The position numbers and the translations under genes were made by a program. Under the pieces are notes generated by a model. It was not told the origin of the DNA. It did no database searches and was given only the letters and a program-made list of their open reading frames with translations. Below are positions 10,160-32,000 of a stretch of 32,000 nt of DNA, in pieces (positions within the stretch are counted from its first letter, which is position 1; each line of letters starts with the position of its first letter). The stretch is from Gemmata obscuriglobus (lineage in GTDB: Bacteria > Planctomycetota > Planctomycetia > Gemmatales > Gemmataceae): assembly GCF_008065095.1 (NCBI RefSeq), contig NZ_CP042911.1, positions 7,560,001 to 7,592,000 on the forward strand, in the 5' to 3' direction.

Positions 10160-10168
10160 TGCTGCTCC

Positions 10169-10914: not shown

Positions 10915-10944
10915 AGTGTGCGGGAGGGGGTTGCCCGGATGAAA
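10915..10944 (-). promoter_or_regulatory. Late promoter-like motif S1 (TTTCAT-N18-CACACT)
   Basis: The minus strand reads TTTCAT CCGGGCAACCCCCTCCCG CACACT, 29 nt upstream of GTG 10885. Confidence 0.5.
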
Positions 10945-11057
10945 GGGGGCGGCGCGCTAAGTCCGGTCCCGGGAAGCTATTGGCGCGATCCCGCCGATCG
11001 GGTCCAATACCCCGGTGTGTGAGTGAGGGGCGGGACGGCGCGCGGGCCGCCGCCGCC

Positions 11058-11074
11058 GGTGCGTGCGCCCGCAC
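11058..11074. repeat. GC palindrome, imperfect copy (GGTGCGTGCGCCCGCAC)
   Basis: It differs by one mismatch from the palindrome at 15065-15082 and 19972-19991. It lies 11 nt upstream of the lipoprotein ATG and about 110 nt from S1. Confidence 0.4.
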
Positions 11075-11085
11075 TAGGGTGTCGC

Positions 11086-13361: not shown

Positions 13362-13362
13362 G

Positions 13363-14105: not shown

Positions 14106-14107
14106 GG

Positions 14108-14983: not shown

Positions 14984-15028
14984 GACAGCACCTCACCCCC
15001 AGCGGAACACGCGGCCCGGTGAGGCCTT

Positions 15029-15058
15029 AGTGTGCGGGGGCGGGTTGCCCGGATGAAA
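15029..15058 (-). promoter_or_regulatory. Late promoter-like motif S2 (TTTCAT-N18-CACACT)
   Basis: The minus strand reads TTTCAT CCGGGCAACCCGCCCCCG CACACT, 45 nt upstream of ATG 14983. Confidence 0.5.
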
Positions 15059-15064
15059 GTGGCC

Positions 15065-15082
15065 GGTGCGGGCGCCCGCACC
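15065..15082. repeat. Perfect 18-nt GC palindrome GGTGCGGGCGCCCGCACC (terminator-like stem-loop or operator)
   Basis: It starts immediately after the stop (15083-15085) of the upstream minus-strand gene. It lies 6 nt upstream of the -35-like hexamer of S2 (5 nt from the extended CTTTCAT). Confidence 0.45.
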
Positions 15083-15562
15083 TCACGCGCGCGGGAACCG
15101 GCCCACGCAGTTCACCACCAGCGCCGTGGCGAGTACCTGGAACAGCGGCGCCTTCTCGTCCACGATCGGCCCGCTGTCGCCCACCTCGCACACCGCGACC
15201 TGGGCGACGCCGGCGAGCCGCTGGCGGTTGAGCGACGTCGTCACCAATCTCCTGAACCCCGTGAGGTCCGTCGGCCCGGTCCGCTTCTCCCCGTGGCTCT
15301 TGCCCGAGCCCAGCAGCATCACTGCGACCGGGTAGCCGCGGCCGTCCTGGCGGTTGGTGCCGAACTCCGGCCGCTCCTGCTCCGGGCCGACGCAGCACAC
15401 CACCCCGCACGGGCGCGTCAGTCGCGCGGCGTCGTCGAGCTCGTCCACCGCGTGCCACGGGAGCGGCGGCGCGGCGAGTTCGGTGGCGAGCGCGTCGGTG
15501 GCGGCCTGGAGCGCCGCTCTGACGGCGTCGCGGATCAGCACGTGGTAATCGGTGATGGGCAT
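15083..15562 (-). CDS. Hypothetical virion protein, possibly head-tail joining or tail terminator by position (159 aa)
   Basis: ATG 15562 is preceded by GGAAGGA. The track ORF starts further upstream (15640) and would overlap the preceding gene. No family recognised. Confidence 0.5.
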   Translation of the reverse strand: MPITDYHVLIRDAVRAALQAATDALATELAAPPLPWHAVDELDDAARLTRPCGVVCCVGPEQERPEFGTNRQDGRGYPVAVMLLGSGKSHGEKRTGPTDLTGFRRLVTTSLNRQRLAGVAQVAVCEVGDSGPIVDEKAPLFQVLATALVVNCVGRFPRA

Positions 15563-18166: not shown

Positions 18167-19135
18167 TCAGGCGCCGAGGTAGTTGCTGACCAGCAGGTCC
18201 CCGTGCCCGCGGTAGACGTTGGTCTTGGTGCCGCCCGCGGTGCCGGCCTGGATCGTCTCCGAGGTGAACACCGCGCGGAACAGGTTCTCCAGCGACGGGT
18301 TCACGATGTACGTGATGGTGTCCGCGCTGAACGTGAGCTGCTCGTTCGGCCACCACTCGTCGTCGGCCGGGTCCGCCTTGTCCAGCTTGAACCCGCGGAA
18401 CGCGAGCTCGACCGCCTTGATGATCTCCTCCACCTCGTTCACCGTGGGCAGGTCGGTGACGGTCATCTTGACCGCGCTCCACCAGAACCCGAACGCCGCG
18501 GCGCCCTCGAAGTCGTACCAGAACTTGACCTGCTTCTCCTCCTTGGACTGCGGCGAGTTGCCGTTGTCCTCGAGCCCCTTGTCCTTGCGGTCCTGCCAGA
18601 TGATCGGCTTCAGGCCGGGCGTCTTGAGCAGCGCCACCACGGTGTTCGTGGACCCGTCGTTGGCCGCGCAGTCCTTGGTCAGGGCGTTGTTCCCGGACCC
18701 GATGTTGTGGCTGGTAGCGAAGAAGTTGGACCCGTCGAAGCACGGCCCGTTGTCCCGCAGCAGCTTGAGGCTCTCGCGGCCCGGGAAGTCGGCCACGTCG
18801 GCCGCCATCATCTGCATGCGGGTGCCGTACCCGCCGGTCTGGTCGTCCTCGATGTCGCGCAGCAGGACCGCCTCCTCCGCGCTGTACTCGAGGTTCTCGA
18901 CCTTGTACTTGCTCCAGTCGGGGCGGGTGTAGTTGCGCCTCCCGAGCCACCGCTTGAGCCGCGGGGGCGGGCTCATCCACGGGTACTGCTCGATGCGGGC
19001 GGTCGAGGCCACCCGCTGGACGAACGACGTCCACGGGGTGATCTTGATGCCCGCGCGCAGGGCCTCGTACGCCTGCAGGAACTCCGACCGCATGCTGGCG
19101 GTGAAGATCGTCACCTTGTCGTTGATGTTCGGCAC
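18167..19135 (-). CDS. Major capsid protein, Mu gpT-like (322 aa)
   Basis: The N-terminal pattern ...W..VA..V.S....E.Y.W...P.L..W.G.R....Y.V.N.....V...DIEDD..G.Y...M..M is the recognisable signature of Mu-like major head subunit gpT. The gene sits downstream of the protease/scaffold. Confidence 0.8.
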   Translation of the reverse strand: MPNINDKVTIFTASMRSEFLQAYEALRAGIKITPWTSFVQRVASTARIEQYPWMSPPPRLKRWLGRRNYTRPDWSKYKVENLEYSAEEAVLLRDIEDDQTGGYGTRMQMMAADVADFPGRESLKLLRDNGPCFDGSNFFATSHNIGSGNNALTKDCAANDGSTNTVVALLKTPGLKPIIWQDRKDKGLEDNGNSPQSKEEKQVKFWYDFEGAAAFGFWWSAVKMTVTDLPTVNEVEEIIKAVELAFRGFKLDKADPADDEWWPNEQLTFSADTITYIVNPSLENLFRAVFTSETIQAGTAGGTKTNVYRGHGDLLVSNYLGA

Positions 19136-19175
19136 GGGTCGCGGGCCTCGAAGGGGGTCGGGGGGTCGTCGGTCC

Positions 19176-19928
19176 TCAGGCGATGGTGACGCCGTTCGGA
19201 CCGCCGTCCGCGTACCAGTTCCCCTGGTACGCGACGACGCGGAAGCTGTTGCCGCGGGCGGCGCCGAACGTGGCGGTCCCGGTCGCGCCCTTGGCGTTGA
19301 ACCCGACGCCGGCGCAGGTGACGACGTGGGCGGCGGCGGTGGTGGACACCAGCTCGAGCACCTTGCCGTCGTCGGCGCCGGCGGCCGGGGCCGCGAGCGT
19401 GAGGGCGGCGGCGGTGCCCTTGGTGAGGAGCACGGTCCCGGCCTTGACCGGCACCGCGCCGTCGCCCGCGAGCACCAGGAGGGCGCTGTTGCCGCCCCCG
19501 CCGGCCTGGAAGTAGTGGGCCTCGACCACCACCGCGGTGGCGCTGAGCACCGCCGCGACGCGGCCGACGAAGTTGCCGAACGCGCCGGGGGCGAACGCGA
19601 CCGTCTGGTCGTCCACCGCGTACACCCGGCGGCCCACGTCGCCCGGGGCGGCCGCGGCGATCGCCACGGTGATGAACCGGGGCTGGTTCACGTCGAGCAG
19701 CACGTCCCCGTTGGCCCCGCCGGCGAGCACCTCGGTACTGGCCGACGCGAGCACCCCGTCGAACGTCTTGACGGCGGCGTCGTCCATCTTGTCCGCCCAG
19801 CCGGCGGCGGTGAGCCCGATCATCGCGTTCGGGAAGAACACCTGGGCGGTGCTGACCGCCCCGCGCTTGGTGATGTAGTCGCCGAACGGGGTGGTCCCCA
19901 CGTTGCCGCGCTTGATCGTGTTGGGCAT
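19176..19928 (-). CDS. Head decoration / cement-like protein candidate (250 aa)
   Basis: It lies between the scaffold and the major capsid. It is a Gly/Ala/Val/Thr-rich beta-type sequence with two similar halves. GAGGGA SD. The family is not confirmed. Confidence 0.5.
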   Translation of the reverse strand: MPNTIKRGNVGTTPFGDYITKRGAVSTAQVFFPNAMIGLTAAGWADKMDDAAVKTFDGVLASASTEVLAGGANGDVLLDVNQPRFITVAIAAAAPGDVGRRVYAVDDQTVAFAPGAFGNFVGRVAAVLSATAVVVEAHYFQAGGGGNSALLVLAGDGAVPVKAGTVLLTKGTAAALTLAAPAAGADDGKVLELVSTTAAAHVVTCAGVGFNAKGATGTATFGAARGNSFRVVAYQGNWYADGGPNGVTIA

Positions 19929-19971
19929 CGGTCGTCCCTCGGGGTCGGCGGGGTCGGGGTCGGGTCGGTGC

Positions 19972-19991
19972 GGGTGCGGGCGCCCGCACCC
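19972..19991. repeat. Perfect 20-nt GC palindrome GGGTGCGGGCGCCCGCACCC (terminator-like stem-loop or operator)
   Basis: It shares its 18-nt core with 15065-15082. It lies 7 nt downstream of the protease/scaffold stop (19999-20001). Confidence 0.45.
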
Positions 19992-19998
19992 GGCGGGG

Positions 19999-21726
19999 TC
20001 AGTGGACCATCGCGGCGGCGTCGGCGCCGATCAGCTTGGCGGCGGTGAACGCCGGGTCCCGCTCGGCCATGCTCTTGGCGGTCGCCACCAGCTTCTTCGG
20101 GTCGGTGCCGTGCTTGCGCAGGGCCTCGCCCTGCGCCTCGGCGAACCGCTCGACCTTGCGCACCTCTGCGGCCGCCCGGTCCTTGGCCTCGGCCGGGCCG
20201 GCGGCGAACCGCTCGCCGAACCGGACCGTCACCGGCATCTGCGCGAGCTGGGCCTTGCGGGCCTCGTAGGCGGTGAGGTTGCGGGTCCGGCCGTTCTCGG
20301 TGAACCGGTGGACGGCCCGGGTGTCGTCGAGCCCGAGCAGGAGCGGCAGGTACGCGGCCGTCACCTGGGCCGGGGTGGCCCGGCCCTCGGAGACGAGCTG
20401 GTCGCAGAACTTCGTCGCGTCGTCGCGCTTCCGCCGCTCGTTGCTGACGCGGAGCCGGCTCAGCTCGTTGTCCAACGCGGCGTTCAGCCGCTTCGCCTTG
20501 ATCGCGAGTTCGCTGTTCACGGTGACGCCCCTGCGGGTGGCGGGTTTGGGCCTGGGTTTGCGCCGCGGCTCGCTCATCGGGACGGCCGCCGGGGCCGGCG
20601 CGGGGGCCGCGGGCGGTGCGGCCGGGTCGGCGGTGAGCTGGGCGTACAGGGCGCGGAGCTGGTCGTCGGGCATGGCGTCGAGCGCGGCCGCGTCCTGGCC
20701 CTGCGCCACCAGGTCCGCGATCATCTCCTCGCGGGTCACGGCCGCCGGGTCCGCCATCGTCTCGACCGGTTCCTCGCCCTCGCCCTCGGTGCCCTCGGTC
20801 TCGGTCCCCTCGCCGATCACTTCCTCGTACAGGGCGCCGAGCTCCTCGTCGCTCATCCCCTCGAGCTCGGCCGCGTCCTCCCCCTCGTCCACCAGGGCGG
20901 CGATCATCTCCTCGCGCGACGGCTCGGCGAACATTCCGGTGGCCGGCGCGGGGGCGGGGTTCGGCGCCGGGGTCGGCGTCGCGGCCCCGGTGGGGAGGTT
21001 CTTGACCAGGTCCGCGAGGGCCTCGTCGGTCATCGCGTCGAGGGTGGACTGGCTGATCCCGGGCATGGCCGCCTGGATCGCGGCGATCATCGACTGGCGG
21101 TCCATTCTGCTCGTCTCCGCGAAGGTGATCAGGGCGCCGCGGCGGCCCCGGACGGTGTGCTCCCGGATCCGCACCCCGGCGCGCTCGCCGAACCGCAGCG
21201 GCGCGGGCATCGGCTCGGGCTTCGGCAGCGGCCCCAGGCGCTTCACCTGGGGCACCTCGCCGCCGAGGTAGCTGAACTTGCGCAGCACCTTGCCGTGCGT
21301 GTTCCCGAAGTCGTCGAGGAACGAGTCGTAGATCTCGGCCGAGCCGTACCGGTACTCGCCGCTCTCGATCTTCCGGGCCATCGCCTCGGGCACGTTGACC
21401 ACGTTCCCCTTGAGGATCACGTGCCCCGCGTGCTGCGGGTCGGGGACGGCCCGCAGGCTGTTCGGGTCGACCCACCCGGCCGCGGGCTCGTCGGTCGGCA
21501 CGAACTCGCGCCACCCCTCGTCGTCCTCGTGCCCGGGGGCCGCCGGCGGGGTGTGCAGCTTCGCGCCGCCCGGGCCGAGCTTGCGCCCGGCCTCGGCCAT
21601 GTTCCGCACCCAGTGCGGGAACCAGCGCCGGCCGCGGTACACCCCCGACGCGAACAGGTTCACGTCGCGGAGCATGTAGTAGCGGGGCTGGGTCGCGGTG
21701 CGGGGCTGGGTGGCGGCGCCGGGCAT
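19999..21726 (-). CDS. Prohead protease/scaffold, Mu gpI-like (575 aa)
   Basis: The N-terminal AAGWVDP...GHVILKGNVVNVPEAMARKIESGEYRYGSAEIY resembles the aaGWi...v.wT..A...i..geYrY.Sp.f signature of Mu-like prophage protein I. The C-terminal half is acidic and helical, as in scaffolds. I chose ATG 21726 because the upstream part of track ORF 19999..22206 is antisense to the TIGR03067-like gene. Confidence 0.6.
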   Translation of the reverse strand: MPGAATQPRTATQPRYYMLRDVNLFASGVYRGRRWFPHWVRNMAEAGRKLGPGGAKLHTPPAAPGHEDDEGWREFVPTDEPAAGWVDPNSLRAVPDPQHAGHVILKGNVVNVPEAMARKIESGEYRYGSAEIYDSFLDDFGNTHGKVLRKFSYLGGEVPQVKRLGPLPKPEPMPAPLRFGERAGVRIREHTVRGRRGALITFAETSRMDRQSMIAAIQAAMPGISQSTLDAMTDEALADLVKNLPTGAATPTPAPNPAPAPATGMFAEPSREEMIAALVDEGEDAAELEGMSDEELGALYEEVIGEGTETEGTEGEGEEPVETMADPAAVTREEMIADLVAQGQDAAALDAMPDDQLRALYAQLTADPAAPPAAPAPAPAAVPMSEPRRKPRPKPATRRGVTVNSELAIKAKRLNAALDNELSRLRVSNERRKRDDATKFCDQLVSEGRATPAQVTAAYLPLLLGLDDTRAVHRFTENGRTRNLTAYEARKAQLAQMPVTVRFGERFAAGPAEAKDRAAAEVRKVERFAEAQGEALRKHGTDPKKLVATAKSMAERDPAFTAAKLIGADAAAMVH

Positions 21727-21732
21727 GCCCCC

Positions 21733-21762
21733 ACTGTGCGCGGGAGGGTTGCCCGGATGAAA
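21733..21762 (-). promoter_or_regulatory. Late promoter-like motif S3 (TTTCAT-N18-CACAGT)
   Basis: The minus strand reads TTTCAT CCGGGCAACCCTCCCGCG CACAGT, then 6 nt, then ATG 21726. Confidence 0.5.
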
Positions 21763-21895
21763 GAAGACCAAAAAAGAGTTGGGCCGCACCAATCGGTGCG
21801 GCAACGCGTCGGCTCTCATCACTCCTTCGTTTGCTCTAACTAAATCGCCATTGCGTCCTCGGACCCGAAGCACCACCCACCACGTGAGGGCTCTG

Positions 21896-22330
21896 ATGAA
21901 CCGGCTTTGTTTCTGCGTGCTCGCGGCGCTCTTCACCACCTGCGTTTCCTTGGGCGAAGAGCAGCCGAAGGCCGTGAAGGACGAACTCAAATTGCTGGAA
22001 GGTGAGTGGAAGGTCGTCAAAGCCGAGAGCGGCGGAAAGGCGGTCAAATCGAAGTCGGTTGTCGTGTACACCGCGGACGGGAAGTCCTCCATTTCGGACC
22101 CCAACTCGGGGCTGCCGCCGCTGAAGACAACGATCGCGCTCGACCCAACGAAGAAGCCGAAATGGATCGACGTGACGAACGCCCGGGGCCGCACCGATAA
22201 GGGCATTTATGAGTTGAACGGCGATCAGATGAAGGCCGTGTTCCGTGCCGGCGGGGACCGACCGACGGAGTTCAAAACGGAAGCCGAGGGCGAGGTGATG
22301 TACACTTACGAGCGGGTCAAACCCAAGTGA
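21896..22330 (+). CDS. Secreted TIGR03067-family (Planctomycetes-type) protein (144 aa), low-GC cargo gene
   Basis: Signal peptide MNRLCFCVLAALFTTCVSLG. LEGEWKVVKAESGGK...IALDPTKKPKWIDVT...GIYELNGDQMKAVF...RPTEFKTE...YERVK matches the TIGR03067 pattern (LqGtWkvvs.e..Gk...y.ldp.kkPk.iD....G...GIYkldgD.L.l......RPteF). The gene is on the opposite strand to the late genes. Confidence 0.75.
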   Translation: MNRLCFCVLAALFTTCVSLGEEQPKAVKDELKLLEGEWKVVKAESGGKAVKSKSVVVYTADGKSSISDPNSGLPPLKTTIALDPTKKPKWIDVTNARGRTDKGIYELNGDQMKAVFRAGGDRPTEFKTEAEGEVMYTYERVKPK

Positions 22331-22427: not shown

Positions 22428-23480
22428 TCAGCCCGCCAGCGCCCGGCACAGCGCCCGCACGCCTGCCAAGCGCCCGCGCAGTTCCGCGACCACGGCCCGT
22501 TCGCTCATGTGGGCCGTGCGGCCCTTCTGCCGCGCGCCCGGGTCGAGCAGGTCGAGCGTCTCGCCCACCCAGGCCTTGAGCTTCTTCACCGCGTCCTGGG
22601 TCGAGTCCGGGGCCTCGCCCGTCACCTCGCGCGCCAGCGGGGCCAGCTTCCGCGGGAACTTCCGCGCGTAATCGTCGATCTGCTTTTCCGCGGCTTTCAG
22701 GGCCGCCCGGGCCGCGGTGGTCTCGTAGTTCCACCCCAGCGCGCGGCCGGTGGTGATCCCGGCGTCCACGCTCTTCTTCAGCGCGGGCAGATTCGGGCTG
22801 CCGTCGGCCCGGGGCGGGACCGCGGGCGCCCCCGTCGCGGTCGCGGCCGCTTTCACCTTCGCGGCCGCGGCGCCGGCGCGGTTGGCGGCCGGCCCCTTGG
22901 GCGCCGGTCCGGTGCGAGGCGGTTGGCGCACCACCGCGTGCGGGTCCGCGACCTTCTTCTTCGGGTCGAACTCCGGCGCCGCCGTCGGCGACTTCGGTTT
23001 CGCCGGCGGGGCGGGTTTCGGTTTGGGCGGGGGTGCGGGCGCCGGTACCTCCTTCGGGACCGCGGGCAGGCTCGCGACCGGGAGCGTGGGCGACGGCTTC
23101 GGCCCGGCCTTCAGTTCCGCCTCGGCGGCCTCGGCGCGCTTGCGGAGCGGCTCGAGCTCGGCGGCCGGGAGCTTCGCCCGGACCGCGGCGTCGTGCGAGT
23201 CGCGCGCGACCTTGGCCTTCATCGTCAGGATGCGCTCCTGCTCGCCAGGTTTGGGACCGCCCTTCCCGGCCGCGGGCGCCTTCGGCCCCGTCGCCGCGGG
23301 CCGCTTCTCGCCTTTCTTGCGGCCCTTCAGCTTCTGGAACACCGCCAGCGTGAGCGTGCGCTTCCCACTGGGCGAGACCATGCGGTCGCCCTTCTGCTGC
23401 CAGTCGTCGAACCCGGCGAACGCGTCCCACACGCCCGCGGCGCAGGCCCGGAGCGCGAGCAGGTCGGTCAGGTCAGGCAC
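22428..23480 (-). CDS. Basic Ala/Pro/Lys-rich virion-module protein with an N-terminal W-x2-W...SGKR module (350 aa)
   Basis: The N-terminus FAGFDDWQQKGDRMVSPSGKRTLTLAVFQKL is paralogous to two segments of the giant ORF. The middle has histone-H1-like PKPKPAPPAKPK tracts. The GTG start overlaps the upstream stop (GTGCCTGA). Confidence 0.6.
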   Translation of the reverse strand: MPDLTDLLALRACAAGVWDAFAGFDDWQQKGDRMVSPSGKRTLTLAVFQKLKGRKKGEKRPAATGPKAPAAGKGGPKPGEQERILTMKAKVARDSHDAAVRAKLPAAELEPLRKRAEAAEAELKAGPKPSPTLPVASLPAVPKEVPAPAPPPKPKPAPPAKPKSPTAAPEFDPKKKVADPHAVVRQPPRTGPAPKGPAANRAGAAAAKVKAAATATGAPAVPPRADGSPNLPALKKSVDAGITTGRALGWNYETTAARAALKAAEKQIDDYARKFPRKLAPLAREVTGEAPDSTQDAVKKLKAWVGETLDLLDPGARQKGRTAHMSERAVVAELRGRLAGVRALCRALAG

Positions 23481-24513
23481 GGCACACCCTCCGCGAAGCG
23501 CCCACCAGGTCCCGGACCGGTTCGGCCATCCGGGCGAGGGCCGCGGCCCGCTCCCGCGTGTCGTCGTCCTGGGCGGCCAGTGCGAGGGCGGCCAGGATGG
23601 TCTCGTCGTCGATCGGGATGTCCGACGGCTTGCCCTGGCGCGCGAGCAGGGCGCGGATCCGGGCCTTGATGAGCGGCACCGGGTCGAGGTCCGCCGGCGG
23701 GGCTTCGGCGAACCCGGCCGGTTTCCCCCGTTTGGTGGGTCGCTTGGCCGCCTTGAGGATCTTCTTGCCGCCCCAGGCCCCGAGCTTCCCGCCGAGCCCG
23801 CCCCCGAGGGCGGTGCCGAGCGCGAGCCCGAGCGGGCCGCCCAGGGCGGTGCCGGCGATCGCGCCCCACGCCATCCCGTTCAGCCCGGCGAGGATCCCGA
23901 CCGCCCCGGCCGTGGCCTTCTTCAGGAAGTCGGCCACCTTCGCGCCGAACCGCTGCCGGTCCCGGCCGTGCTGGGCGGTGATGTACGCGCTCTCCGCGGG
24001 CGTCGGGTCCGGCAGCTTCTGGCTGCCGGGCAACGGCGGGGCCTTCACGGGCGGCCTGATGGGGCGGGTGTAGTCGACGTCCGCGGCGTACGGCCCGAGC
24101 CTCTGGCCGCCCGCCCGGACCCGGTCGTACGCGGCCCGGTTCGCCGCGGCGGACGGGTCCCCGGACCGCGTTTTCTTCTTCCTCTTCGCGGGGGCGGCGA
24201 TGGCCCGGGGGCCGGCGGCCGCGCCGCCCGCGGCCGGCGCCGCCCAGGCGGCCGTTCCCGTGGGCCAGCCGGCGGGCGCGGGCTCGGAGGCGGAAGGCTT
24301 CGGCGCCGCGCCCTGTGGCGCCGGGGCCTTTTTCGCGGCCCCCTTCGCGGCGCGGTTGCCGACCCGCTGTTGGTGCCGCTGGTAGGCGTCGTTCGACAGC
24401 ACCCGGCCGCCGGCCGAGCGCCACTTGCCGCCGTCGATCTGCTGCCACTCCACCGCGAAGCAGTGGACGAGCAGGTGCGCGGCGCGGAGCAGCGGGTATG
24501 CGGTGCGGCTCAT
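23473..24513 (-). CDS. Basic protein with a glycine-zipper hydrophobic segment and a degenerate copy of the W-x2-W module (346 aa)
   Basis: I prefer ATG 24513 to the track TTG at 24522, which falls inside the -10-like hexamer of S4. The protein contains HCFAVEWQQIDGGKWRSAGGRVLSNDAYQRH and GAVGILAGLNGMAWGAIAGTALGGPLGLALGTALGGGLGG. Confidence 0.55.
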   Translation of the reverse strand: MSRTAYPLLRAAHLLVHCFAVEWQQIDGGKWRSAGGRVLSNDAYQRHQQRVGNRAAKGAAKKAPAPQGAAPKPSASEPAPAGWPTGTAAWAAPAAGGAAAGPRAIAAPAKRKKKTRSGDPSAAANRAAYDRVRAGGQRLGPYAADVDYTRPIRPPVKAPPLPGSQKLPDPTPAESAYITAQHGRDRQRFGAKVADFLKKATAGAVGILAGLNGMAWGAIAGTALGGPLGLALGTALGGGLGGKLGAWGGKKILKAAKRPTKRGKPAGFAEAPPADLDPVPLIKARIRALLARQGKPSDIPIDDETILAALALAAQDDDTRERAAALARMAEPVRDLVGASRRVCRA

Positions 24514-24520
24514 GGCACCC

Positions 24521-24550
24521 AAGTTAACGGGCCGGGTTGCCCGGATACCG
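24521..24550 (-). promoter_or_regulatory. Late promoter-like motif S4 (CGGTAT-N18-TAACTT; diverged hexamers, conserved spacer core)
   Basis: The minus strand reads CGGTAT CCGGGCAACCCGGCCCGT TAACTT, then 7 nt, then ATG 24513. Confidence 0.4.
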
Positions 24551-24696: not shown

Positions 24697-25872
24697 ATGT
24701 CAGAAAAAGTCAAAATACTCTTCCTAGCAGCAAATCCGTCGGACCTGACACAGTTGCAGCTGGACGAAGAAATTAGAGCAATTCAGGGCAAAATCCGATC
24801 TGCTGACTTCAGCAGTAACTTCGACCTTGTCTCACGCTGGGGGGTGCGGCCCAGCGACTTGATTCAGGCTTTTAACGAAGTACGCCCTCACATAGTCCAT
24901 TTCAGCGGGCACGGTAGCCGTACTGCTGAACTTGCCCTCAAGAGCGATGATGGGACGACTAAGCCTGTAACTGCCGCAGCACTTGTGAGTCTTTTCAGAA
25001 GCGCGGGTAGCAGTGTACAACTGGTCGTCCTCAACGCCTGCCACTCCGACGCGCAAGCACACGCCCTAAGTCGAGAAGTCGAATGCACCATTGGAATGAA
25101 CGCCGAAATTGGGGACAATGCAGCGATAGCATTCGCTTCACGCTTTTATGGCTCTCTGGCATTTGGCCTTTCCGTCGGGCAAGCTTTCGAGCAGGGCAAA
25201 ACGGAACTGATGCTAGAAGGAATTCCCGAGGAGGATACGCCTGTTCTCCTATGCCGCCCTGACGCAACTCCTCACACGATTGCTTTCGTCAACCGAGTTC
25301 CGGTTAATCCGCTGCTACCGCCTTTGGCCTGGGAGATTCTTCAGCATGCGATAGACGGCAATGGCCCAGTCCAATTGAGCGAGTACGATGGTGGCGTTGT
25401 GGCCATGGCAGCTGGGACGCCGTTTGATAGCGGTTTCGACACCCAACAAGCCGCGCTGATCCGCGACTCGATCCGTCTCCTCTTGCAATGCCGCTGGCTT
25501 GAACGATCCGATCGCGAGCTTTTGCATGTTACGGCAGAGGGCTTCGAGGCGATTCGTAAACGCGCAGGTGCCCAAAGCCCAAGCTTCCTCAAAATCAAAG
25601 AGCAGATGCCCGCGCTTTTTGCAGAGATGAAGAAAGACCTGGAGAGCAAAGAAGGCAAGTTCGTGCGAGAGTTTTTCGTCATGAGCCGCCGCCACGCCCT
25701 CGGCGGCTCAGATAAGCCTCGATTTGTCTACTACGAAGAGGATCATTCCAACCTCCGCGGCCAGATTGACATCTTGGAAAACCAAGGCTACCTGACCGAC
25801 GTGACCCCGAAAAATGTACCTATTTACCGCATGAGCGAAGAGCTTGTGAGGCTGGTACTTAAATTTGGATAA
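24697..25872 (+). CDS. Minimal CHAT (caspase-like His-Cys) protease domain fused to an uncharacterised, possibly winged-helix-like, C-terminal half (391 aa); low-GC cargo gene
   Basis: The N-terminal 190 aa follow the CHAT pattern KILFLAANP.D...L.LDEEIR.I......FDLVSRWGVRPSDL...F....PHIVHFSGHG....L.L......LVVLNACHS.AQA......V.C.IGM...IGD.AAI.FA..FY..L..G.S...AF. The predicted dyad is His72 (CAC 24910-24912) and Cys115 (TGC 25039-25041). GC is about 50% against about 70% in the flanks. AGAGG SD. Confidence 0.8.
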   Translation: MSEKVKILFLAANPSDLTQLQLDEEIRAIQGKIRSADFSSNFDLVSRWGVRPSDLIQAFNEVRPHIVHFSGHGSRTAELALKSDDGTTKPVTAAALVSLFRSAGSSVQLVVLNACHSDAQAHALSREVECTIGMNAEIGDNAAIAFASRFYGSLAFGLSVGQAFEQGKTELMLEGIPEEDTPVLLCRPDATPHTIAFVNRVPVNPLLPPLAWEILQHAIDGNGPVQLSEYDGGVVAMAAGTPFDSGFDTQQAALIRDSIRLLLQCRWLERSDRELLHVTAEGFEAIRKRAGAQSPSFLKIKEQMPALFAEMKKDLESKEGKFVREFFVMSRRHALGGSDKPRFVYYEEDHSNLRGQIDILENQGYLTDVTPKNVPIYRMSEELVRLVLKFG

Positions 25873-25877: not shown

Positions 25878-26894
25878 TTACCAGCTCCTTTCCACGCGGA
25901 CCACGCCCATCAGGTGCTTGCTAACCGGGGCGAAGCTGCACCGGCAGTTCCACACCCGCGAGCCGCGCACCTCGGCGAACGGGACACTCGACGGGAAGTA
26001 CTTGCCGATCTTGGGGCGGTGGTCGTCGCCGGTCCGGTCGTCGAGGACCCCCAAGTACTCCCAGGCCGGGAACCGCTCCCGCATGTCCGGGTCCGCGATC
26101 TCGTCCTGGGCGCCCTGGTTGTACGCGTCGAGCACGTTGGTCCGCACCACCATGTCCGCGTACTGCGGGTTCGCCACCGACACGCCGGCGTCGTCGAGGA
26201 CCTGCTCGACGTCCGGCACCGCGCTGGCGCCCGTTTGCAGCTGCTTCAGGATCGCCGCCTTGACCTTCTCCAGCACCGTCTGATCGCTGGCCACCGCGAG
26301 CGTGAACGCGTGCCGGTCGAGCTTGGCGCCGTACCGCGCCGTCCCCCCGCCCAGCGTCGGCACGAGGCGGCGGAAGTACTCGAGCGCGGTCGTGGGCTCC
26401 AGCACCGGGACCGCGTCGGTGAAGTCGTGGAACGGGTCGTCGGTGCCGGCGTCCGCGAACGCCACCCGCTCGGCCATCTCGGCCCGCCGGCGGATCCGCG
26501 CGCGGCCCATCAGGTCGGCGCTGGCCACGCACCGCGCCAGGGCCTCGGCGATCTGCCCCAGCTCGGCGTCGTCGAACAGCACCGGCGCCCCGAGCGGGTC
26601 CCCGGAGGTGAGCAGCCGCCGCACCGCCGACTCGCTGGCCGTGGCGAACACCTCGGCCCCGTCGGCCCGGGCGCGGGCCAGGAGCTGCGCGGCGCGGGCG
26701 CCGTCCGGTCCGGCCGGGGCGAACGCGTCCCCCTCCGCGAACCGCGCGAGCGGCGCGGGCTCAGTCAAAAAGCCCCGGACCTCGCTTCGCCACGACCGGA
26801 GCTGCTCCGGGGTCGTTGCCGGATAGCACGTTTCGCACTGCGGCGAGGGTCTTGGCCCGGAGCTGGGAGCGCCCGGCGTTGGTGGCGTCGGCAT
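25878..26894 (-). CDS. Head morphogenesis protein, Mu F / SPP1 gp7 family (338 aa from ATG 26894; start uncertain)
   Basis: The C-terminal VVRTNVLDAYNQG...FPAWEYLGVLDDRTGDDHRPKIGKYFP...VWNCRCSFAPV is the characteristic MuF/gp7 signature. ATG 26894 would overlap the giant ORF by 134 nt. An alternative TTG at 26768 would overlap by 8 nt. Confidence 0.75.
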   Translation of the reverse strand: MPTPPTPGAPSSGPRPSPQCETCYPATTPEQLRSWRSEVRGFLTEPAPLARFAEGDAFAPAGPDGARAAQLLARARADGAEVFATASESAVRRLLTSGDPLGAPVLFDDAELGQIAEALARCVASADLMGRARIRRRAEMAERVAFADAGTDDPFHDFTDAVPVLEPTTALEYFRRLVPTLGGGTARYGAKLDRHAFTLAVASDQTVLEKVKAAILKQLQTGASAVPDVEQVLDDAGVSVANPQYADMVVRTNVLDAYNQGAQDEIADPDMRERFPAWEYLGVLDDRTGDDHRPKIGKYFPSSVPFAEVRGSRVWNCRCSFAPVSKHLMGVVRVERSW

Positions 26895-29800
26895 AGTGCA
26901 CCGCGTACTCGTTCAGGAGGTCGGAGAGCGGCCCCTTGAGCCGGGCGCCGCGGTCGAAGTCGTCGAGGGCCGCGTCCGCCTTGTCGGCGATCGTGCGGTT
27001 CTGCTCGGTGGCGAGCCGGTTGCCGGCCACCGACTCGAGGGCCTGGGCGCGGCGCACGCTGGCCCCGAGGCGGAAGTCCTTGGCCTCCTTCGCCAGCTCG
27101 GCCCGCACGTACGCCTTGAGCTCGGCCCGGTGGAAGTAGACGCTCTCGTCCTGCTCGATCGGGCCGAACAGCGACTCCTGCGTGCGGCTCACCTTCGGGG
27201 CGTCGCGCATCTCCTGGGCCATCGCCTCGACCACCCGCGGGCCGGCCGCCCGCCCGGTCCGCTCCTCCTGCTTGACCAGCGCCGACAGGAGCCGCTGCTG
27301 GTCCAGGTGGTCGTCCAGGTGCCGGGCCACCGCGGCCGCCCGGTCCGGGTCGAGGGACCCGTGGGCCACCTGGCGGAACAGATCCGGGGCGAGCTTCACC
27401 AGGTCGGCGGCGTCGCGCGCCACCTGCCCCTTGAGCGAGATCCCGGCGGCCGCGAGGTCCGCGGCCGAGCGCCCCGTGTCGCGCAGGAACTTGGCCGCGT
27501 CCACCGCGGTGCCCCGGCCCTCGGCGATGTTGATCAGCGCCCCCTTGGCCCGGGCCTCCGCGGCGGTCCGGGCGGTCACGTACCGGACGCTCACGTCGCG
27601 GGCGCCGGTGCGGTTCGCGAGGTCGAGCCGGTGGTGCCCGTTCACCACGTACGTCTTCCCGTCGGCCGGGTCCTTCCAGACCGCCAGCACGCCCGCCAGC
27701 TCCGGGTCGAACGTGGTCACGTGCGCGAGCTCGGCGCCGACGCCCCGGGCGTTGGTGTTCAGCTTGAACTGGAACCGGCCCGGGTCCACCGCCACCCGGC
27801 CGGGCGCGACCTGGTACACCCGCCCGGGCTGCGGGCTCGCCGGCGGCGCGAACGGCGACCGGCCCGGTGCCCCCGCCGCGACGGCCCCCGGAGCCGGGGT
27901 GCCGCCGCGGCGCGCGCTGAGCTTCTGGAACGCGTCCAGGGTCAGGGACCGCTTCCCGCTCGGCGACACCATCCGGTCGCCCTGCCGGGTCCACTCGTGC
28001 CACGCGAACGCGTGCACCCGCTCGGAGTGGGGCACCACCTCGTCGTTCCCGGTGGCCCGCATCCCGGCGTCGGCGGCCTTGCGCCCGATCTTGCGGCCCA
28101 GGTACACGGTGCCCGCGACCGCCGCGGGGGCGGCGAGGAACCCGGCCAGCGGCGGGATCAGCCCGGCCCCGGCGGCCAGCACCGGCGCGGCCATCACGGC
28201 GGCCCCGCCCACCAGCGCCGCGCCCCACCACAGGAACGGCCGGGCCGCCCGCCCGAGGCGCGAGTTCGCCAGCCATTTGGCCGCGCCCCAGCCGGCCCGG
28301 ACCGCCTTCGGGGTGAGGCGCAGGGTTTCGCGGGCGAGCGCCAGCAGCCCCTGGCCCGTGCCGACGGCGGTGGACACGGCGGCGTCGGCCGCGTGCCCGG
28401 CCAGGGTGCGGGGCACGGCCAGCGCGGCCCGGCCCGCCGCGGTCACCGCCCCGGCGGCCCCGGAGATCAGGTTCGAGGCGGTCTGCCGGTCGTGGGCGCC
28501 GGCGCGAACGACGTCGCCCACCACCTCGCCGGCCAGCCGCCGGACGGTCCGGGGGGCCTTGACCGCCGCCCGCACCAGCCCGCCGGCGAACCGCCCCAGC
28601 GCCCCGACCACCAGCTTCGCCCCGCCGGCGGGCAGCTTGGCCAAATACCCGCCGAGCTTGAGCGCGAGGTCGCCGGCCGCGTCCACGTCCCGGCCGAGCG
28701 TGTCCTCCAGGAGGTTGCCCACTTCTTTGCGCTGGCCCTTGGGCATGCCCCGGGCGGCGTCGAGCCACGTGGAGCGGATGACCGGCCGCACCACCTCCGG
28801 GAGCGGCCCGAGCTTCTTCAACTCGGCCGCGGCGTGCGTCACCGCCTGCTTCCCGGCGTCGGCCACCTTCGCGGCCGCGGCGGGGTCGCTCCCCGCCCGG
28901 GCGGCGGCCGGGGCGAGTTCGGCGGCCTGCGCGGTGACGGCCTTGCGGATCCGGGTCCGGTTGATCTTCACGAGCCGCGGCGTGCGGGGGTCGGGCGGGC
29001 CGTCCTGGGCGTCCCGGCGGGCCTGCTGCGCGACCACCTCGCGCGCCCGCTCCGGGCTCACGCCCCGCTCGACCGTGCGCTTCACCCCGCCGCGCGGGCC
29101 GACGGTCTCGAACGTCAGGGTCCGCGGGGCCGTGGCCCGGCGGCCCACGCCGGCCTGGCGCTCGAGCGCGGCCCGGGCCCTGTCCCCATAAAGAACCTGC
29201 CCCTGATGCTCCGCGGTACCGACGGCCTTCACGCCCCCGGACCGGGTCCGCGCCGGCTGCCACCCGAACACGTCCCACGCCAGCCCGAGGCCTTCCGCCC
29301 GGTCGGCGAACGATTCGGCCTGCGCGGGCGCGTCCTCGTCGAGCGCCGCGGCGGTCGCCTCGTCCAGGTACTCGAGCAGGTCCGCCAGCAGCGCCGCGAG
29401 CTGCTCGTCGGTCAGGTCGATCGGGTGCCCGAGGGCGCGCTCCGCCTGCTCGCGGAACGCGACCACGAACCCGAGCGGGTCGTCGCCCGCGGCCTCGGCG
29501 AAGAACTTCCGCTGCGACGCCTGCCCCGGGCCGCGGTAGAAGTCCCGCCCGCCGGCCCGGTTGTTCGCGTTGCGGGCGGCGCCCACGGCCGCGCTCGGCC
29601 CCGCCACCATCCCCGCCCGGGCGGCCTTCAACTTGGCCCGGGCCTCCGCGCGGGCCACCGCCTTCGGCCCGCGGGTCTTGAGCAGGAGCGCGCGCTTCGC
29701 ACGGCTCAGGAGCCCGCCGCTGTTGGTGCCGAGCTCCTGGGCGCGGCGGGCCTCCATCGCCGCGTCCGCTTTGCGCACCGCGGTGCCGGCCCCGCGCGTC

Positions 29801-31989
29801 CCGCGGAGGTTGTTCCAGCGGCCGTAGAACGGCGCCTGGACGGCCTTGCGGATGAGCCCGGACACGGCCCCGGACAGGTACGTTTTCGCCCCGGCCCCGA
29901 GCAGCGCGGTCGCGGTCAGGCCCTTGCCCGCGGCGGTGCCGATGGCCAGCCCCGCGACGCCCGGCGCCCCGGCCAGCCCGGCCAGGGCCAGCGCCCCGCC
30001 GACGGCCGCGGTGCCGAGGGTGAACGACAGGGCCAGGGTGCCGGCCTCCATCACCAGCGCCTTGCCCAGCCCGTGGATCTTGTAGTTGCGGTAGAAGTCC
30101 GGGGCCGCGGCCTTGAGCACCCGCTTGACCGCCTTCCGGGTGGCCGCGCCCTTCTGCCCGCGGATCATGGCCTGGATGGCGATCGAGCGGGCCTCGTCCT
30201 TGAGGGCCTTGCCGAACCGCTCGAGGGGCGCGCCGACGGAGTCGAGCAGCGGCACCCGGCGGATCGCCTGCCCCAGCTTCTCGGCGGCCCACCCCGCGCC
30301 CTGGACCGTGGACGAGCCGCCGGCCAGCCCGAGCGCGGCCGCGTCCCCGGCCCGCCGGGCGGCGGCCTTCGCGCCCCGCCCCGCCGCGGCCGCGGCCCGC
30401 CGGGCGGCGAGCGTGCCCCGCGCGGTCTTCGGCGCGGGGGCAGCAGGGGCGGGAGCAGCGGGCGCGGCCGGTGCGGTCGGGGGGTTCGGCGGTTTCGGCG
30501 CGGCCGGGGGCTTCGGCGCGGCGGGCGCCGGGGGCGGTGCGGGCGCCCGCACCGGGGCCGCCGGGCCGGCGGCGCGGGCCTTGGGCAGGGCGCCGCCCGC
30601 GCGGGTCCGGGAGCTGAGCCGCTGGAACGACTCGAGTGTGAGCGACCGCTTCCCGCTGGCGCTCACCATGCGCGGGCCGGCGGGCGTGTTGGTCTGCTTC
30701 CAGTCGTCCCACCCGAACACGTGCACCCGCTGTTCCGCGAACGGCACCGCCGCGCCACCGCCGGCGGACGGGTCGCCGGGCGGGAGCAGCGCGGGGTCGC
30801 CCATTGATGGATCGGGCGGGAATTCGCCACCCATCCCCATGCCGCCCATGCCCATGCCGCCCATCGGGTCGGCGCTTGGGCCGGGCAGCTGGAGGGCGTC
30901 GTCGGGGTCGTTCGGGTCCGCGAGCTGGAGGCTGAACGCCTTCGCGTAGTGCTTCTTGGACAGCGCGTTCGGGCCGGTGAACCCGATCGCCTGCGCCCCC
31001 TGCACCACCTGGAGCAGCTCGAGCAGCTCCTGGTTGCTGGCGGCCCCGAACGTGAGCTTGGGGTACGCCCCGCCGGCCGGGTACGGGTAGTTGAAGTCGA
31101 CGAACTTGGGGGCCAGCTGCTTGTTGACCGCGTCCGTCACCAGCGCCATCAGGAGCCACGGCACCAGGTCGGCGATCGACTTCTGGACCTTCGAGTCCCC
31201 GCGCAGCTCGGGGGCGGCGCTCACCAGGCTCTGGAGCGTGGCGAACGTGATCCCGCTGACCACCTCGTCCCGCTTGCTCTCGGCGAAGCTCTTGTAGTCC
31301 GGCTCCGAGGCGGCCGACAGGTTGATCGCCTCGATCCGCACCCCCTCGGGCACGGCGATCCAGGTGGCGCTCTTGGCCTTCCGCAGCGCGTCCTCCAGGG
31401 CCGGCTTGTCGTCGTCGCTCTGGTACGTGCCCATGAGCATGCCGGCCATGCGCTTCTCGTGGTGGATCACGCGGAGCTTGTCCACCGTGTCCAGCATCCA
31501 CCACGCGCCGTACGCCGGGCGGTACGCGGCGAGCCCGAGCGGCTCGTCGAACACCGTCATGTACCGGCTGAACACGAAGTCCTCAATGGGGTACGCGGGC
31601 TGCTCCGGCGCGCGCCGGGCCTGCACCCACTTGACGTTGCCGAAGGGGTCCCCGCCCAGCCGCACGTCGCCGCACGTGTCGTCGGTGTCCTTGGCCGACA
31701 GCTTGGTGCAGACGATGTGCTTCGCGAGCTTCCCCTGCCGGCCGGGGTTCCAGACGGGCTCGGCGAGCGAGTGCCCCTCGCTCCCGAGCGGGGCGCAGAC
31801 GGCCCGCACGACCGAGATGATGCCGCCCGCCAGGTAGTCCTCGATCATCGCCTTGAACGCGTCCGCCTGCTCCTCGCTCTCCGGGTTCCCCGGCTCCGAC
31901 GCCTGCACCTGCCAGTCCTCGGCCGCGACCGTCAGGATCGCCGGCTCCCAGGCCGTCGCGACCCACGGGCTGCGGCGCATGAGCCGCAT
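26761..31989 (-). CDS. Giant fusion ORF (at least 1742 aa): portal-like N-terminus, two [W-x2-W...SGKR module / low-complexity / hydrophobic] segments, ParB-like domain, helical C-terminus
   Basis: A single open frame. Residues 1 to about 370 look like a phage portal (probably the Mu gp29/DUF935 type, by context). A GGMGMGGMGMGG linker follows. Module copies are at aa 421-460 and 1323-1360. Gly/Ala hydrophobic stretches are at aa 641-715 and 1251-1297. The ParB-like NGHHRLDLA segment is at about aa 1391-1500. The frame stays open to the window edge, so the true start may lie upstream. The other long ORFs over this span are Arg/Gly/Pro-rich out-of-frame artefacts. Confidence 0.7.
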   Translation of the reverse strand: MRLMRRSPWVATAWEPAILTVAAEDWQVQASEPGNPESEEQADAFKAMIEDYLAGGIISVVRAVCAPLGSEGHSLAEPVWNPGRQGKLAKHIVCTKLSAKDTDDTCGDVRLGGDPFGNVKWVQARRAPEQPAYPIEDFVFSRYMTVFDEPLGLAAYRPAYGAWWMLDTVDKLRVIHHEKRMAGMLMGTYQSDDDKPALEDALRKAKSATWIAVPEGVRIEAINLSAASEPDYKSFAESKRDEVVSGITFATLQSLVSAAPELRGDSKVQKSIADLVPWLLMALVTDAVNKQLAPKFVDFNYPYPAGGAYPKLTFGAASNQELLELLQVVQGAQAIGFTGPNALSKKHYAKAFSLQLADPNDPDDALQLPGPSADPMGGMGMGGMGMGGEFPPDPSMGDPALLPPGDPSAGGGAAVPFAEQRVHVFGWDDWKQTNTPAGPRMVSASGKRSLTLESFQRLSSRTRAGGALPKARAAGPAAPVRAPAPPPAPAAPKPPAAPKPPNPPTAPAAPAAPAPAAPAPKTARGTLAARRAAAAAGRGAKAAARRAGDAAALGLAGGSSTVQGAGWAAEKLGQAIRRVPLLDSVGAPLERFGKALKDEARSIAIQAMIRGQKGAATRKAVKRVLKAAAPDFYRNYKIHGLGKALVMEAGTLALSFTLGTAAVGGALALAGLAGAPGVAGLAIGTAAGKGLTATALLGAGAKTYLSGAVSGLIRKAVQAPFYGRWNNLRGTRGAGTAVRKADAAMEARRAQELGTNSGGLLSRAKRALLLKTRGPKAVARAEARAKLKAARAGMVAGPSAAVGAARNANNRAGGRDFYRGPGQASQRKFFAEAAGDDPLGFVVAFREQAERALGHPIDLTDEQLAALLADLLEYLDEATAAALDEDAPAQAESFADRAEGLGLAWDVFGWQPARTRSGGVKAVGTAEHQGQVLYGDRARAALERQAGVGRRATAPRTLTFETVGPRGGVKRTVERGVSPERAREVVAQQARRDAQDGPPDPRTPRLVKINRTRIRKAVTAQAAELAPAAARAGSDPAAAAKVADAGKQAVTHAAAELKKLGPLPEVVRPVIRSTWLDAARGMPKGQRKEVGNLLEDTLGRDVDAAGDLALKLGGYLAKLPAGGAKLVVGALGRFAGGLVRAAVKAPRTVRRLAGEVVGDVVRAGAHDRQTASNLISGAAGAVTAAGRAALAVPRTLAGHAADAAVSTAVGTGQGLLALARETLRLTPKAVRAGWGAAKWLANSRLGRAARPFLWWGAALVGGAAVMAAPVLAAGAGLIPPLAGFLAAPAAVAGTVYLGRKIGRKAADAGMRATGNDEVVPHSERVHAFAWHEWTRQGDRMVSPSGKRSLTLDAFQKLSARRGGTPAPGAVAAGAPGRSPFAPPASPQPGRVYQVAPGRVAVDPGRFQFKLNTNARGVGAELAHVTTFDPELAGVLAVWKDPADGKTYVVNGHHRLDLANRTGARDVSVRYVTARTAAEARAKGALINIAEGRGTAVDAAKFLRDTGRSAADLAAAGISLKGQVARDAADLVKLAPDLFRQVAHGSLDPDRAAAVARHLDDHLDQQRLLSALVKQEERTGRAAGPRVVEAMAQEMRDAPKVSRTQESLFGPIEQDESVYFHRAELKAYVRAELAKEAKDFRLGASVRRAQALESVAGNRLATEQNRTIADKADAALDDFDRGARLKGPLSDLLNEYAVHYADATNAGRSQLRAKTLAAVRNVLSGNDPGAAPVVAKRGPGLFD
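27490..27819 (-). other. ParB/Srx-fold (ParB-like nuclease / NTP-binding) domain inside the giant ORF
   Basis: YQVAPGRVAVDPGRFQFKLN...LAGVLAVWKDPADGKTYVVNGHHRLDLANRTGARDVSVRYV has the strand - G-H/R-x-R - helix arrangement typical of ParB N-terminal-like domains. Confidence 0.6.
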
Positions 31990-32000
31990 GGCGGCGCGGA

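Follow-up and report, generated by a model that had tools for sequence, protein, structure and literature searches.

The 32,000-nucleotide stretch of Gemmata obscuriglobus DNA analysed here (contig NZ_CP042911.1, positions 7,560,001 to 7,592,000; in the following, the window) carries head genes of a Mu-like prophage. The gene in question is an open reading frame (ORF) at 26761-32000 on the minus strand, as are all features below unless marked otherwise, in which a Mu-type portal domain is continued by a long extension that ends in a ParB-like domain. It encodes 1742 residues from the first in-window ATG at 31989, and all residue numbers refer to this start. No stop lies between this ATG and the window edge, and a stop-to-stop scan flags the ORF as open. 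As the frame runs on beyond the edge, aa 1 is not the true start; compared with a 1831-aa ortholog (see below), about 86 residues of the portal N-terminus are missing, and the full protein is expected to measure ~1831 aa. The G+C content of 26761-31989 is 70-79%. Two shadow ORFs of 1579 aa (26765-31504, minus strand) and 1303 aa (26896-30807, plus strand) overlap the gene, and because such long shadow ORFs share the region, ORF length alone is uninformative at 78% GC. A codon-position scan of 26800-31900 gave a single phase with a G+C content at third positions (GC3) of 0.92-1.00 all along, and the lowest G+C at the next higher coordinate (0.38-0.69 in most 300-nt scan windows), climbing to ~0.8 only at 30251-30700, which encodes a linker and tract rich in Gly, Pro and Ala. 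The pattern is that of a single, unbroken gene on the minus strand, and its frame is the very one (26761-31989) that an earlier note on this DNA, made from the sequence alone, had read as uninterrupted.

The Mu-type portal domain occupies aa 1 to ~375 (30865-32000, the N-terminus being cut by the window edge). Pfam Portal_Mu (PF06074, DUF935) scores 101.8 bits over aa 3-352 (cut-off 23.9; E 6e-29), spans profile positions 6-334 of 336, and is the sole Pfam family in the whole protein. The nearest ordinary portals (P0075, P0077 and P0082) are ~505 aa long, share 59-65% identity, have no extension and have a MuF gene immediately downstream. In the window, the genes for MuF, a putative protease/scaffold protein (g5) and the major head protein are found downstream of the portal gene; the terminase lies beyond the window and was found upstream of the full-length homolog P0087 and of the close portals. 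On the basis of profile and synteny the domain is assigned as a Mu-type portal, in line with the earlier call.

The portal domain passes into a Gly/Met/Pro-rich acidic linker (aa 376-416; 30742-30864) that contains GGMGMGGMGMGG, and an equivalent Gly-rich linker precedes the C-terminal tail in the portals of relatives. The next three residues, F417-A-E419 (30733-30741), form a candidate prohead-protease site at the portal/cargo boundary, as judged from a motif alignment to relatives. The remaining extension is composed of three units (aa 420-900, 901 to ~1320 and 1321-1742), each headed by a module of ~40 aa, here called the W-module, with the consensus F-x-W-x2-W ... G-x-R-x-[VL]-[ST] ... [FY]-Q-[RK]-L. 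Copy 1 (aa 423-465; 30595-30723) reads FGWDDWK...MVSASGKRSLTLESFQRL and matches the hidden Markov model (HMM) of the module with E 3.7e-21. Copy 2 (aa 901-945; 29155-29289; LAWDVFGWQPARTRSGGVKAVG...) follows SFAD and is degenerate; its region shows 61% identity to a homologous ORF (L011, see below) at the same position. Copy 3 (aa 1321-1369; 27883-28029; HAFAWHEWTRQGDRMVSPSGKRSLTLDAFQKL; HMM E 4e-24) heads the ParB-like unit. The repeat is real, as aa 415-461 and 1319-1360 align at 60% identity (BLAST, E 3e-10), and the modules also match the N-terminus of the downstream gene g4 (E 2e-8 to 5e-7, with 69% identity at E 2e-8). Thus, the W-x2-W...SGKR repeat described earlier is a true one, but it heads three units rather than two.

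The remainder of unit 1 (29503-30594) consists of an Ala/Pro-rich tract (aa 466-560) and a very basic region (pI ~11.7) with a Gly/Ala-rich hydrophobic, glycine-zipper-like segment (aa 651-685; 29935-30039; Kyte-Doolittle 19-residue peak 1.76). It is followed by a second F-A-E (aa 830-832) and an acidic helical tail (aa 833-900; together 29290-29502), arranged as in the C-terminus of the downstream gene g3. Unit 2 (28030-29154) combines a basic helical region (aa 946-1235) with a second hydrophobic segment (aa 1252-1295; 28105-28236; Kyte-Doolittle 19-residue peak 1.89). Both units are strongly basic (pI 11.5-12), and their Gly/Ala-rich segments look membrane-spanning. Composition and hydropathy therefore agree with the GGMGMGG linker, the Ala/Pro-rich tract and the two Gly/Ala hydrophobic segments pointed out in the earlier note. 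For the middle region, aa 420-1365, neither Pfam (even at E up to 10) nor PHROGs returned a match.

The C-terminal part, aa 1371-1719 (26833-27879), is predicted to comprise a ParB/sulfiredoxin (Srx) fold, a helical region resembling a helix-turn-helix (HTH) and a beta-hairpin/helical C-terminal domain; its NGHHR motif (27628-27642) is invariant in the family alignment. The AlphaFold2 model of this ~350-aa domain, built with 50 homologs, reached a predicted local distance difference test (pLDDT) of 91.7 and a predicted template-modelling score (pTM) of 0.82. The 30 best Foldseek matches in the PDB were all ParB, Noc, KorB, Spo0J or PadC (best E 2.5e-5, probability 1.0), the best alignment covering ~210 columns, i.e. 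the ParB N-domain and the adjoining helical DNA-binding region. In BFVD, the top matches are named "Large polyvalent protein associated domain", and phage ParB/Spo0J proteins appear from rank 11 on. N87-G88-H89-x-R91 is invariant in the 50 homologs, likewise G-A-x2-N-x3-G. In the model, NGHxR and NIAEGRG appear to sit where ParB boxes II and III are expected, and from its position in the fold we infer that the NGHxR arginine corresponds to the box II arginine. ParBc (PF02195) gave no Pfam match with the whole protein (E up to 1) or the isolated domain (E up to 10), nor did ddrB-ParB (presumably PF18763) with either of them, and PDB searches with the ParB-like domain, both phmmer and profile, returned noise and no ParB. 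A weak match to PHROG 1033, "ParB-like partition protein", was seen in one homolog (6e-6). As there is no sequence-profile match to ParBc, the ParB assignment rests on the fold. Of the two domain calls in the earlier note the portal is hence confirmed in Pfam, whereas the ParB/Srx fold around NGHHR lacks a Pfam match and is borne out by AlphaFold2 and Foldseek. Membership in a DdrB-like family was considered but found no support in Pfam or in an hhalign comparison of the 50-sequence family with P1 DdrB (probability 0.1%, E 0.46), in which the single-sequence template limits sensitivity.

In PHROGs, aa 1371-1719 match positions 1001-1346 of the 1362 columns of phrog_21 (E 1e-93). What had been taken for a separate helical tail of ~240 aa is thus conserved with the ParB-like part as one ~350-aa unit. 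Since phrog_21 is annotated "portal protein", a published portal-labelled family already contains a ParB-like C-terminal domain. Together with its recurrence in many genomes and viral contigs (see below), this speaks against the suggestion that a portal-ParB fusion is without precedent.

The fusion has a close and intact counterpart. The ortholog WP_010046290.1 (1831 aa) is 97% identical in protein and 96% in DNA to the window ORF, from which it differs by a single in-frame 2-aa indel and no frameshift. It is present as an identical 1831-aa protein in three G. obscuriglobus records (AWM38145.1, QEG28968.1, VTS07511.1), and also on the older draft contig ABGO01000214.1 and on ~20 Logan contigs from separate runs. 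NCBI names it "hypothetical protein" and UniRef "ParB/Sulfiredoxin domain-containing protein". Its locus, reached through a homolog of g5, has the order 1831-aa portal ORF, MuF, g3-like, g4-like, protease/scaffold and major head protein. The two copies diverge at ~10% of synonymous sites, and the ratio of nonsynonymous to synonymous substitution rates (dN/dS) comes to 0.165 overall; throughout the extension it stays at 0.09-0.2, with the lowest values in the low-complexity units 1 and 2 (0.09-0.11; 0.11 for aa 561-830, 0.09 for unit 2). These ratios indicate that the fusion gene is under purifying selection. More distant homologs at 61-70% identity share the same architecture, namely P0087 (1993 aa) and L011/P0093 (1562 aa) from a Planctomycetia metagenome-assembled genome (MAG).

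Extended portals are frequent among the relatives of this gene. An exhaustive HMMER search with aa 1-1200 across 1.84 billion cluster representatives gave 636 matches. For the best 150 of these portal representatives the median length is 917 aa, at odds with the 400-800 aa that the earlier note had regarded as normal; 109 measure at least 650 aa, 64 at least 1000 aa and 22 at least 1500 aa, and nine contain the ParB-like domain. Thirty-six long portals from remoter clusters carry MuF (10), ADP-ribosyltransferase (4), C39 peptidases, topoisomerase IB, InPase or 2H domains. The ParB-like domain itself was found at 68 genome loci from many phyla and on 405 viral contigs, at most loci embedded in ORFs of 1000-4000 aa. 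In 75 distinct ORFs the domain is preceded by 330 residues or more; Portal_Mu stands at the start of 21 of them and a lambda-type portal at the start of one, and other partners are MuF, LPD22, LPD14, Zeta toxin, SLT, VanY, RelA_SpoT, GGDEF and GNAT. Examples are a cyanobacterial portal-ParB fusion of 855 aa (L019), a Pirellulaceae portal-ParB-Zeta-like protein of 1230 aa (L047) and a portal-ParB-MuF triple fusion of 1590 aa from a Fimbriiglobus MAG (L012). Between the W-module and the main ParB-like domain of the latter, an extra segment with DGRHR (aa 530-650, ~5080-5440) may be a second small ParB/Srx-like domain, and the next ORF (7935-15407, plus strand; 2491 aa) has three more W-modules and is an apparent cargo polyprotein.

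The split equivalent exists as well. At locus L007, a 504-aa Mu-type portal gene is separated by an 8 nt gap from a 499-aa ParB-like gene starting MLVFDEHTLTFAEW... (...TFAEW...), and the gene after it starts with a related W-type module. Because such split equivalents exist, the cargo units are regarded as independent proteins; both the fused (P0087, L011/P0093) and the split form (L007) that the earlier note had proposed to look for in relatives were thus found. In two close relatives without a portal extension (L004 117-3239, L005 2616-5873), an unannotated protein of 1040-1085 aa is encoded upstream of the terminase. In podophages, the ParB-like domain lies inside giant proteins annotated as hypothetical: a 2563-aa protein of the T7-like Prochlorococcus phage P-SCSP1g (L002 4633-12324) and a ~3900-aa protein of Ruegeria phage 45A6 (L001, 3805 onwards). 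The P-SCSP1g gene is located downstream of that for tail tubular gp12, which, going by the gene order of T7, we take to be the position of an internal core or ejection protein. When 50,697 phage records were searched by tblastn with the 855-aa cyanobacterial fusion, no hit among the 404 obtained covered 80% or more of the query. As it is absent among the cultured phage records searched, the portal-ParB fusion is so far a feature of prophages, MAGs and viral contigs.

Downstream of the portal gene follow a MuF-like minor head protein (25878-26894; Pfam Phage_Mu_F), whose true start is probably near 26750-26800 rather than at the ATG at 26894, and two free-standing cargo genes. The product of g3 (23473-24522) combines a degenerate W-module (E 1e-9), a Pro/Ala tract, a glycine-zipper, F-A-E and an acidic tail. 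That of g4 (22428-23480) has a strong N-terminal W-module (E 7e-23) and Pro/Ala/Lys-rich tracts; inspection of its translation by eye showed no Gly/Ala hydrophobic stretch. The statement that both genes repeat the architecture of the extension therefore holds for g3, which mirrors unit 1 fully, but for g4 only as regards the W-module and the Pro/Ala/Lys tract. The putative prohead protease/scaffold g5 (19999-21678) takes the place that I/Z has in Mu. Its C-terminal half is matched by PHROG 976, "head maturation protease" (E 1e-20), and His50, Ser113 and Glu115 are invariant in the family alignment. In the protein, a helical and acidic repeat (REEMIAALV...) occurs twice in tandem, and there are five F-[AG]-E motifs, several of which (FAExxxMDR, VVRFGER) are kept across 50 homologs and would fit self-processing. 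The 735-aa ATG call for g5 probably starts too early, as GC3 is 0.73-0.83 at 21679-22206 (minus strand) and the family consensus begins with MLRDVNLFASG at 21678.

The F-[AGS]-E motif recurs throughout this module. In VPFAE-QRVHVFGWDDW, F-A-E precedes W-module 1 and aligns with LAF[AGS]E in the C-terminal tails of the short portals of relatives, ~22-25 residues ahead of their C-terminus. The head-module proteins contain 11 F-[AGS]-E motifs where 1.85 are expected, a number attained in 0 of 2000 shuffles, as compared to two occurrences against 1.15 expected in the tail genes. Within ~110 aa past the portal domain it is present in 70 of 132 representatives (9.5 expected), and at this boundary it is retained whether 10 or 1,611 residues come after. 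The motif also takes equivalent positions in the portals, MuF and protease/scaffold proteins of relatives.

Taken together, these data are best explained, with slightly better than even confidence, by a cargo polyprotein that is anchored to the portal and belongs to a Mu-like prophage of a Gemmata-type planctomycete. The portal C-terminus (crown) faces the capsid interior, because of which the covalent link would load exactly twelve cargo copies into each procapsid. Next, the putative prohead protease, whose gene lies a few genes further down, would cut at F-x-E, in the manner of protease I on Mu gp29: at F417-A-E419, and probably also at F830-A-E832 and near H-S-E at ~aa 1322, which would yield a portal of normal size and three or four internal proteins. 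On infection, the cargo products would exit the capsid together with the DNA. The basic glycine-zipper proteins, which resemble DNA-contacting and membrane-inserting proteins, might help envelope passage and/or coat DNA, and the ParB-like protein might bind the incoming DNA as a clamp or nickase regulated by nucleoside triphosphate (NTP), thereby protecting it or manipulating host DNA. The cargo mass of 12 x 136 kDa = 1.64 MDa corresponds to ~2,000 nm3, or 2-3.4% of the capsid volume at an inner radius of 24-27 nm; the concern that twelve extensions would fill much of the capsid is thus dispelled. A precedent for trimming is provided by the cryo-electron microscopy of the Mu virion, which lacks the C-terminal 124 residues of the portal protein gp29, a loss ascribed by its authors to protease I (PMC11915804). 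Of the options raised in the earlier note, cutting of the polyprotein is hence the best-supported one, given the gp29 precedent and the boundary F-[AGS]-E, albeit the cutting protease is weakly assigned.

A more specific version of this scheme is put forward as a tentative and rather doubtful proposal. Here, the W-module and the F-[AGS]-E ahead of it would form a portable and perhaps so far undescribed "load-and-release" cassette that docks cargo to portal, scaffold or MuF inside Mu-type procapsids and marks it for release by the protease; whatever protein follows the cassette, fused or free, would thus be injected from the virion. These cargoes would include a DNA clamp with a ParB fold, gated by NTP, which would enter along with the genome and protect or organise it. 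Delivered by the portal, this clamp would correspond in function to the DNA-end-binding protein that Mu injects.

Several points weigh against the cargo polyprotein. Cleavage, packaging and ejection are deduced from sequence and by analogy, and the prophage may be defective. F-[AGS]-E is absent from Mu gp29, gp30 and I, so that the candidate cut site has no calibration on a known case; for the same reason F-x-E is rejected as a universal Mu-family site and considered clade-specific. The third boundary (~aa 1322) reads H-S-E instead of F-x-E; the homolog P0001 from a Gemmata sp. MAG has F-G-E there. As F-A-E lies inside the W-module of the free-standing proteins, it may belong to a binding module. 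The assignment of g5 as a protease is weak: Pfam Mu-like_Pro gave no match, hhalign aligned it with Mu I at motif level (AAGW...GE(Y/F)xYxSA, E 0.09), and Foldseek with the whole AlphaFold2 model (pLDDT 82.6, pTM 0.40) found nothing in the PDB at E below 1, which may stem from searching a multi-domain model whole. The label "gpI-like protease", given earlier to this gene as a 735-aa neighbour, is accordingly weakly supported, by the PHROG 976 match to the C-terminal half. Finally, the ParB assignment is at fold level (TM-score 0.32-0.54), and nucleotide binding is predicted at most.

Instead of being cut, the twelve tails could stay on the portal as an internal, DNA-facing body that is not injected, comparable to the T7 core or the P22 portal barrel, and organise the DNA spool or hold the first-packaged end via the ParB-like domain. 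The covalent link to the portal is kept in several lineages, the pI of 11.5-12 is suited to contact with packaged DNA, a total of 1.64 MDa is comparable to known internal cores, and cleavage is, after all, a prediction. Against this stands that the same units occur as free genes right after portals of ordinary length, so that tethering is not required for their function, and that the boundary motif is conserved regardless of what follows, which fits a processing site. As the C-terminus of the Mu portal is moreover removed in virions (PMC11915804), and the glycine-zipper segments make better sense in proteins that leave the capsid, we consider uncut tails unlikely. Less probable still is a role of the ParB-like unit in the producing cell, as a DNA-binding or nicking accessory at the portal vertex that would act during packaging rather than after injection and aid the terminase at the start or end of headful packaging. 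ParB-like nuclease genes are often located beside phage terminase genes, the gene is part of the packaging/head module, and the fold resembles the entire ParB N-domain plus HTH DNA-binding region. However, the domain also occurs in very large proteins with several effectors and in podophages in the region of the internal proteins, and it is missing altogether from many close relatives whose portal is the same. By established portal architecture, moreover, the C-terminus of the portal is directed towards the capsid interior and not towards the terminase (the Mu crown domain is described in PMC11915804).

The remaining explanations deny the fusion a function or its existence. The loss of stop codons between once-separate genes of a defective or domesticated element might be suspected from the split versions in relatives, from the foreign CHAT gene inserted in the head operon (see below) and from the fact that inducibility of the prophage is presumed. 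Such decay is very improbable in view of the low dN/dS along the extension, the single in-frame indel at ~10% synonymous divergence, the uniform GC3 and the same fusion at 61-70% identity in other MAGs; further, the ParB-like domain is present in at least nine portal representatives, and a portal stands at the start of 21 of the 75 ParB-like ORFs. An assembly or sequencing error that joined separate genes has nothing but the general risk of GC-rich, low-complexity DNA in its favour, and its likelihood is negligible with an identical 1831-aa ortholog in three NCBI records, in ABGO01000214.1 and in many Logan assemblies, at 96% nucleotide identity over the ORF and with no frameshift at the protein level. 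Artefact and pseudogene were both rejected on frame analysis, independent assemblies and dN/dS; given the intact near-identical ortholog and the distant homologs of the same architecture, the gene is neither, for practical purposes.

With regard to known systems, effectors fused to portal or MuF have been described and are predicted to be packaged and injected, the published portal fusions being PBECR, 2H, InPase (BcepF1.124), Nudix and ART, and ParB/Srx-superfamily domains are among the hubs of the polyvalent-protein network (Iyer et al. 2017, PMC5512222; Iyer et al. 2022, PMC9503650). Like polyvalent proteins, the Gemmata ORF unites multiple unrelated modules in one polypeptide among the late/head genes of a portal-terminase phage, and in homologs the ParB-like domain is accompanied by LPD22, LPD14, Zeta toxin, SLT, RelA_SpoT, GGDEF and VanY. 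Unlike them, it shows no MPTase, methylase, SNF2, ART or LPD domains in Pfam, two of its three cargo units are basic, of low complexity and glycine-zipper-bearing, and its ParB-like domain is not of the DdrB type. By architecture and context it is placed in the portal/MuF-anchored polyvalent/effector class, with delivery predicted. Delivered cargo, offered in the earlier note as an alternative to cutting, matches these published fusions but is compatible with the polyprotein rather than a rival to it.

Mu gp29 (H) shares the family PF06074 and the order portal, MuF, protease/scaffold and major head protein, and the loss of its last 124 residues sets a precedent for removing what follows the crown. 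In contrast to the 1,323-aa tail of the Gemmata protein, the tail of gp29 (512 aa in total) has no recognisable cargo and no F-[AGS]-E. Phage P1 packages DarA, DarB, DdrA and DdrB as internal head proteins, which undergo proteolytic processing and are set free on infection. One of them, DdrB, holds a ParB-superfamily domain. The P1 proteins are however encoded by separate genes, unfused to the portal, and the hhalign probability with DdrB is the 0.1% given above. The MuF-fused polymorphic toxins of temperate phages, reportedly described by Jamet et al. in 2017, likewise join a variable C-terminal cargo, which presumably enters the host together with the DNA, to a head-associated anchor. The Gemmata anchor is the portal instead, and no toxin/immunity pair is evident; as MuF is a separate gene (25878-26894), fused only in the Fimbriiglobus triple fusion, the ORF is not a MuF-fused toxin. 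The chromosomal or plasmid DNA clamps dependent on cytidine triphosphate (CTP), i.e. ParB, Noc and KorB, are the best structural matches of the C-terminal domain, which differs from them in having no ParBc profile match and in its extra beta-hairpin/helical C-terminal domain. Moreover, no ParA partner was found among the window genes scanned, and the context is one of virion cargo, not partition.

Already known are thus the near-identical protein in databases, with its ParB/Sulfiredoxin label, and the class of portal/effector fusions. A limited literature search found no explicit description of a portal-ParB fusion or of a Gemmata Mu-like prophage, nor any of the W-module or of F-x-E as a unit delimiter; what may therefore be new is the description of the W-module, as an N-terminal tag that free cargo genes share with fused ones, and of F-x-E as a boundary motif. 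If the cargo polyprotein holds true, the locus would be a compact example of a temperate phage that loads defined amounts of accessory proteins via the end of its portal gene and cuts them off at maturation. The median of 917 aa suggests that among environmental Mu-type portals an extension is the norm, and, with 64 of the 150 nearest representatives reaching at least 1000 aa, that cultured model phages bias the picture of portal genes. The boundary motif and the N-terminal W-module offer testable handles, by which injected phage proteins could be recognised from their sequence or the delivery of cargo be engineered, and a virion-borne ParB-fold protein would widen the known roles of the ParB/CTPase superfamily. 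As to annotation, a plain "portal protein" or "hypothetical protein" is inadequate for such ORFs.

Two further observations concern the surroundings of the gene. The DNA of the window is 93-96% identical in four blocks to the G. obscuriglobus contig L159. Window positions 18179-20189, with g6 and the major head gene, have no nucleotide match to the corresponding 11428-13406 of L159, and the capsid proteins differ. By this comparison the head module is mosaic, and the window is a second, related prophage and not the same locus as L159. Inside the head operon, the opposite strand encodes a 391-aa protein with a caspase-like CHAT domain (24697-25872, plus strand; Pfam CHAT 8e-11, PADLOC SAVED_CHAT 6e-11). 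The G+C content of this gene is ~56% against ~75% around it, and the orthologous G. obscuriglobus locus lacks it and has a 62-aa gene in its place; it has the appearance of an acquired gene of the moron or defence kind.

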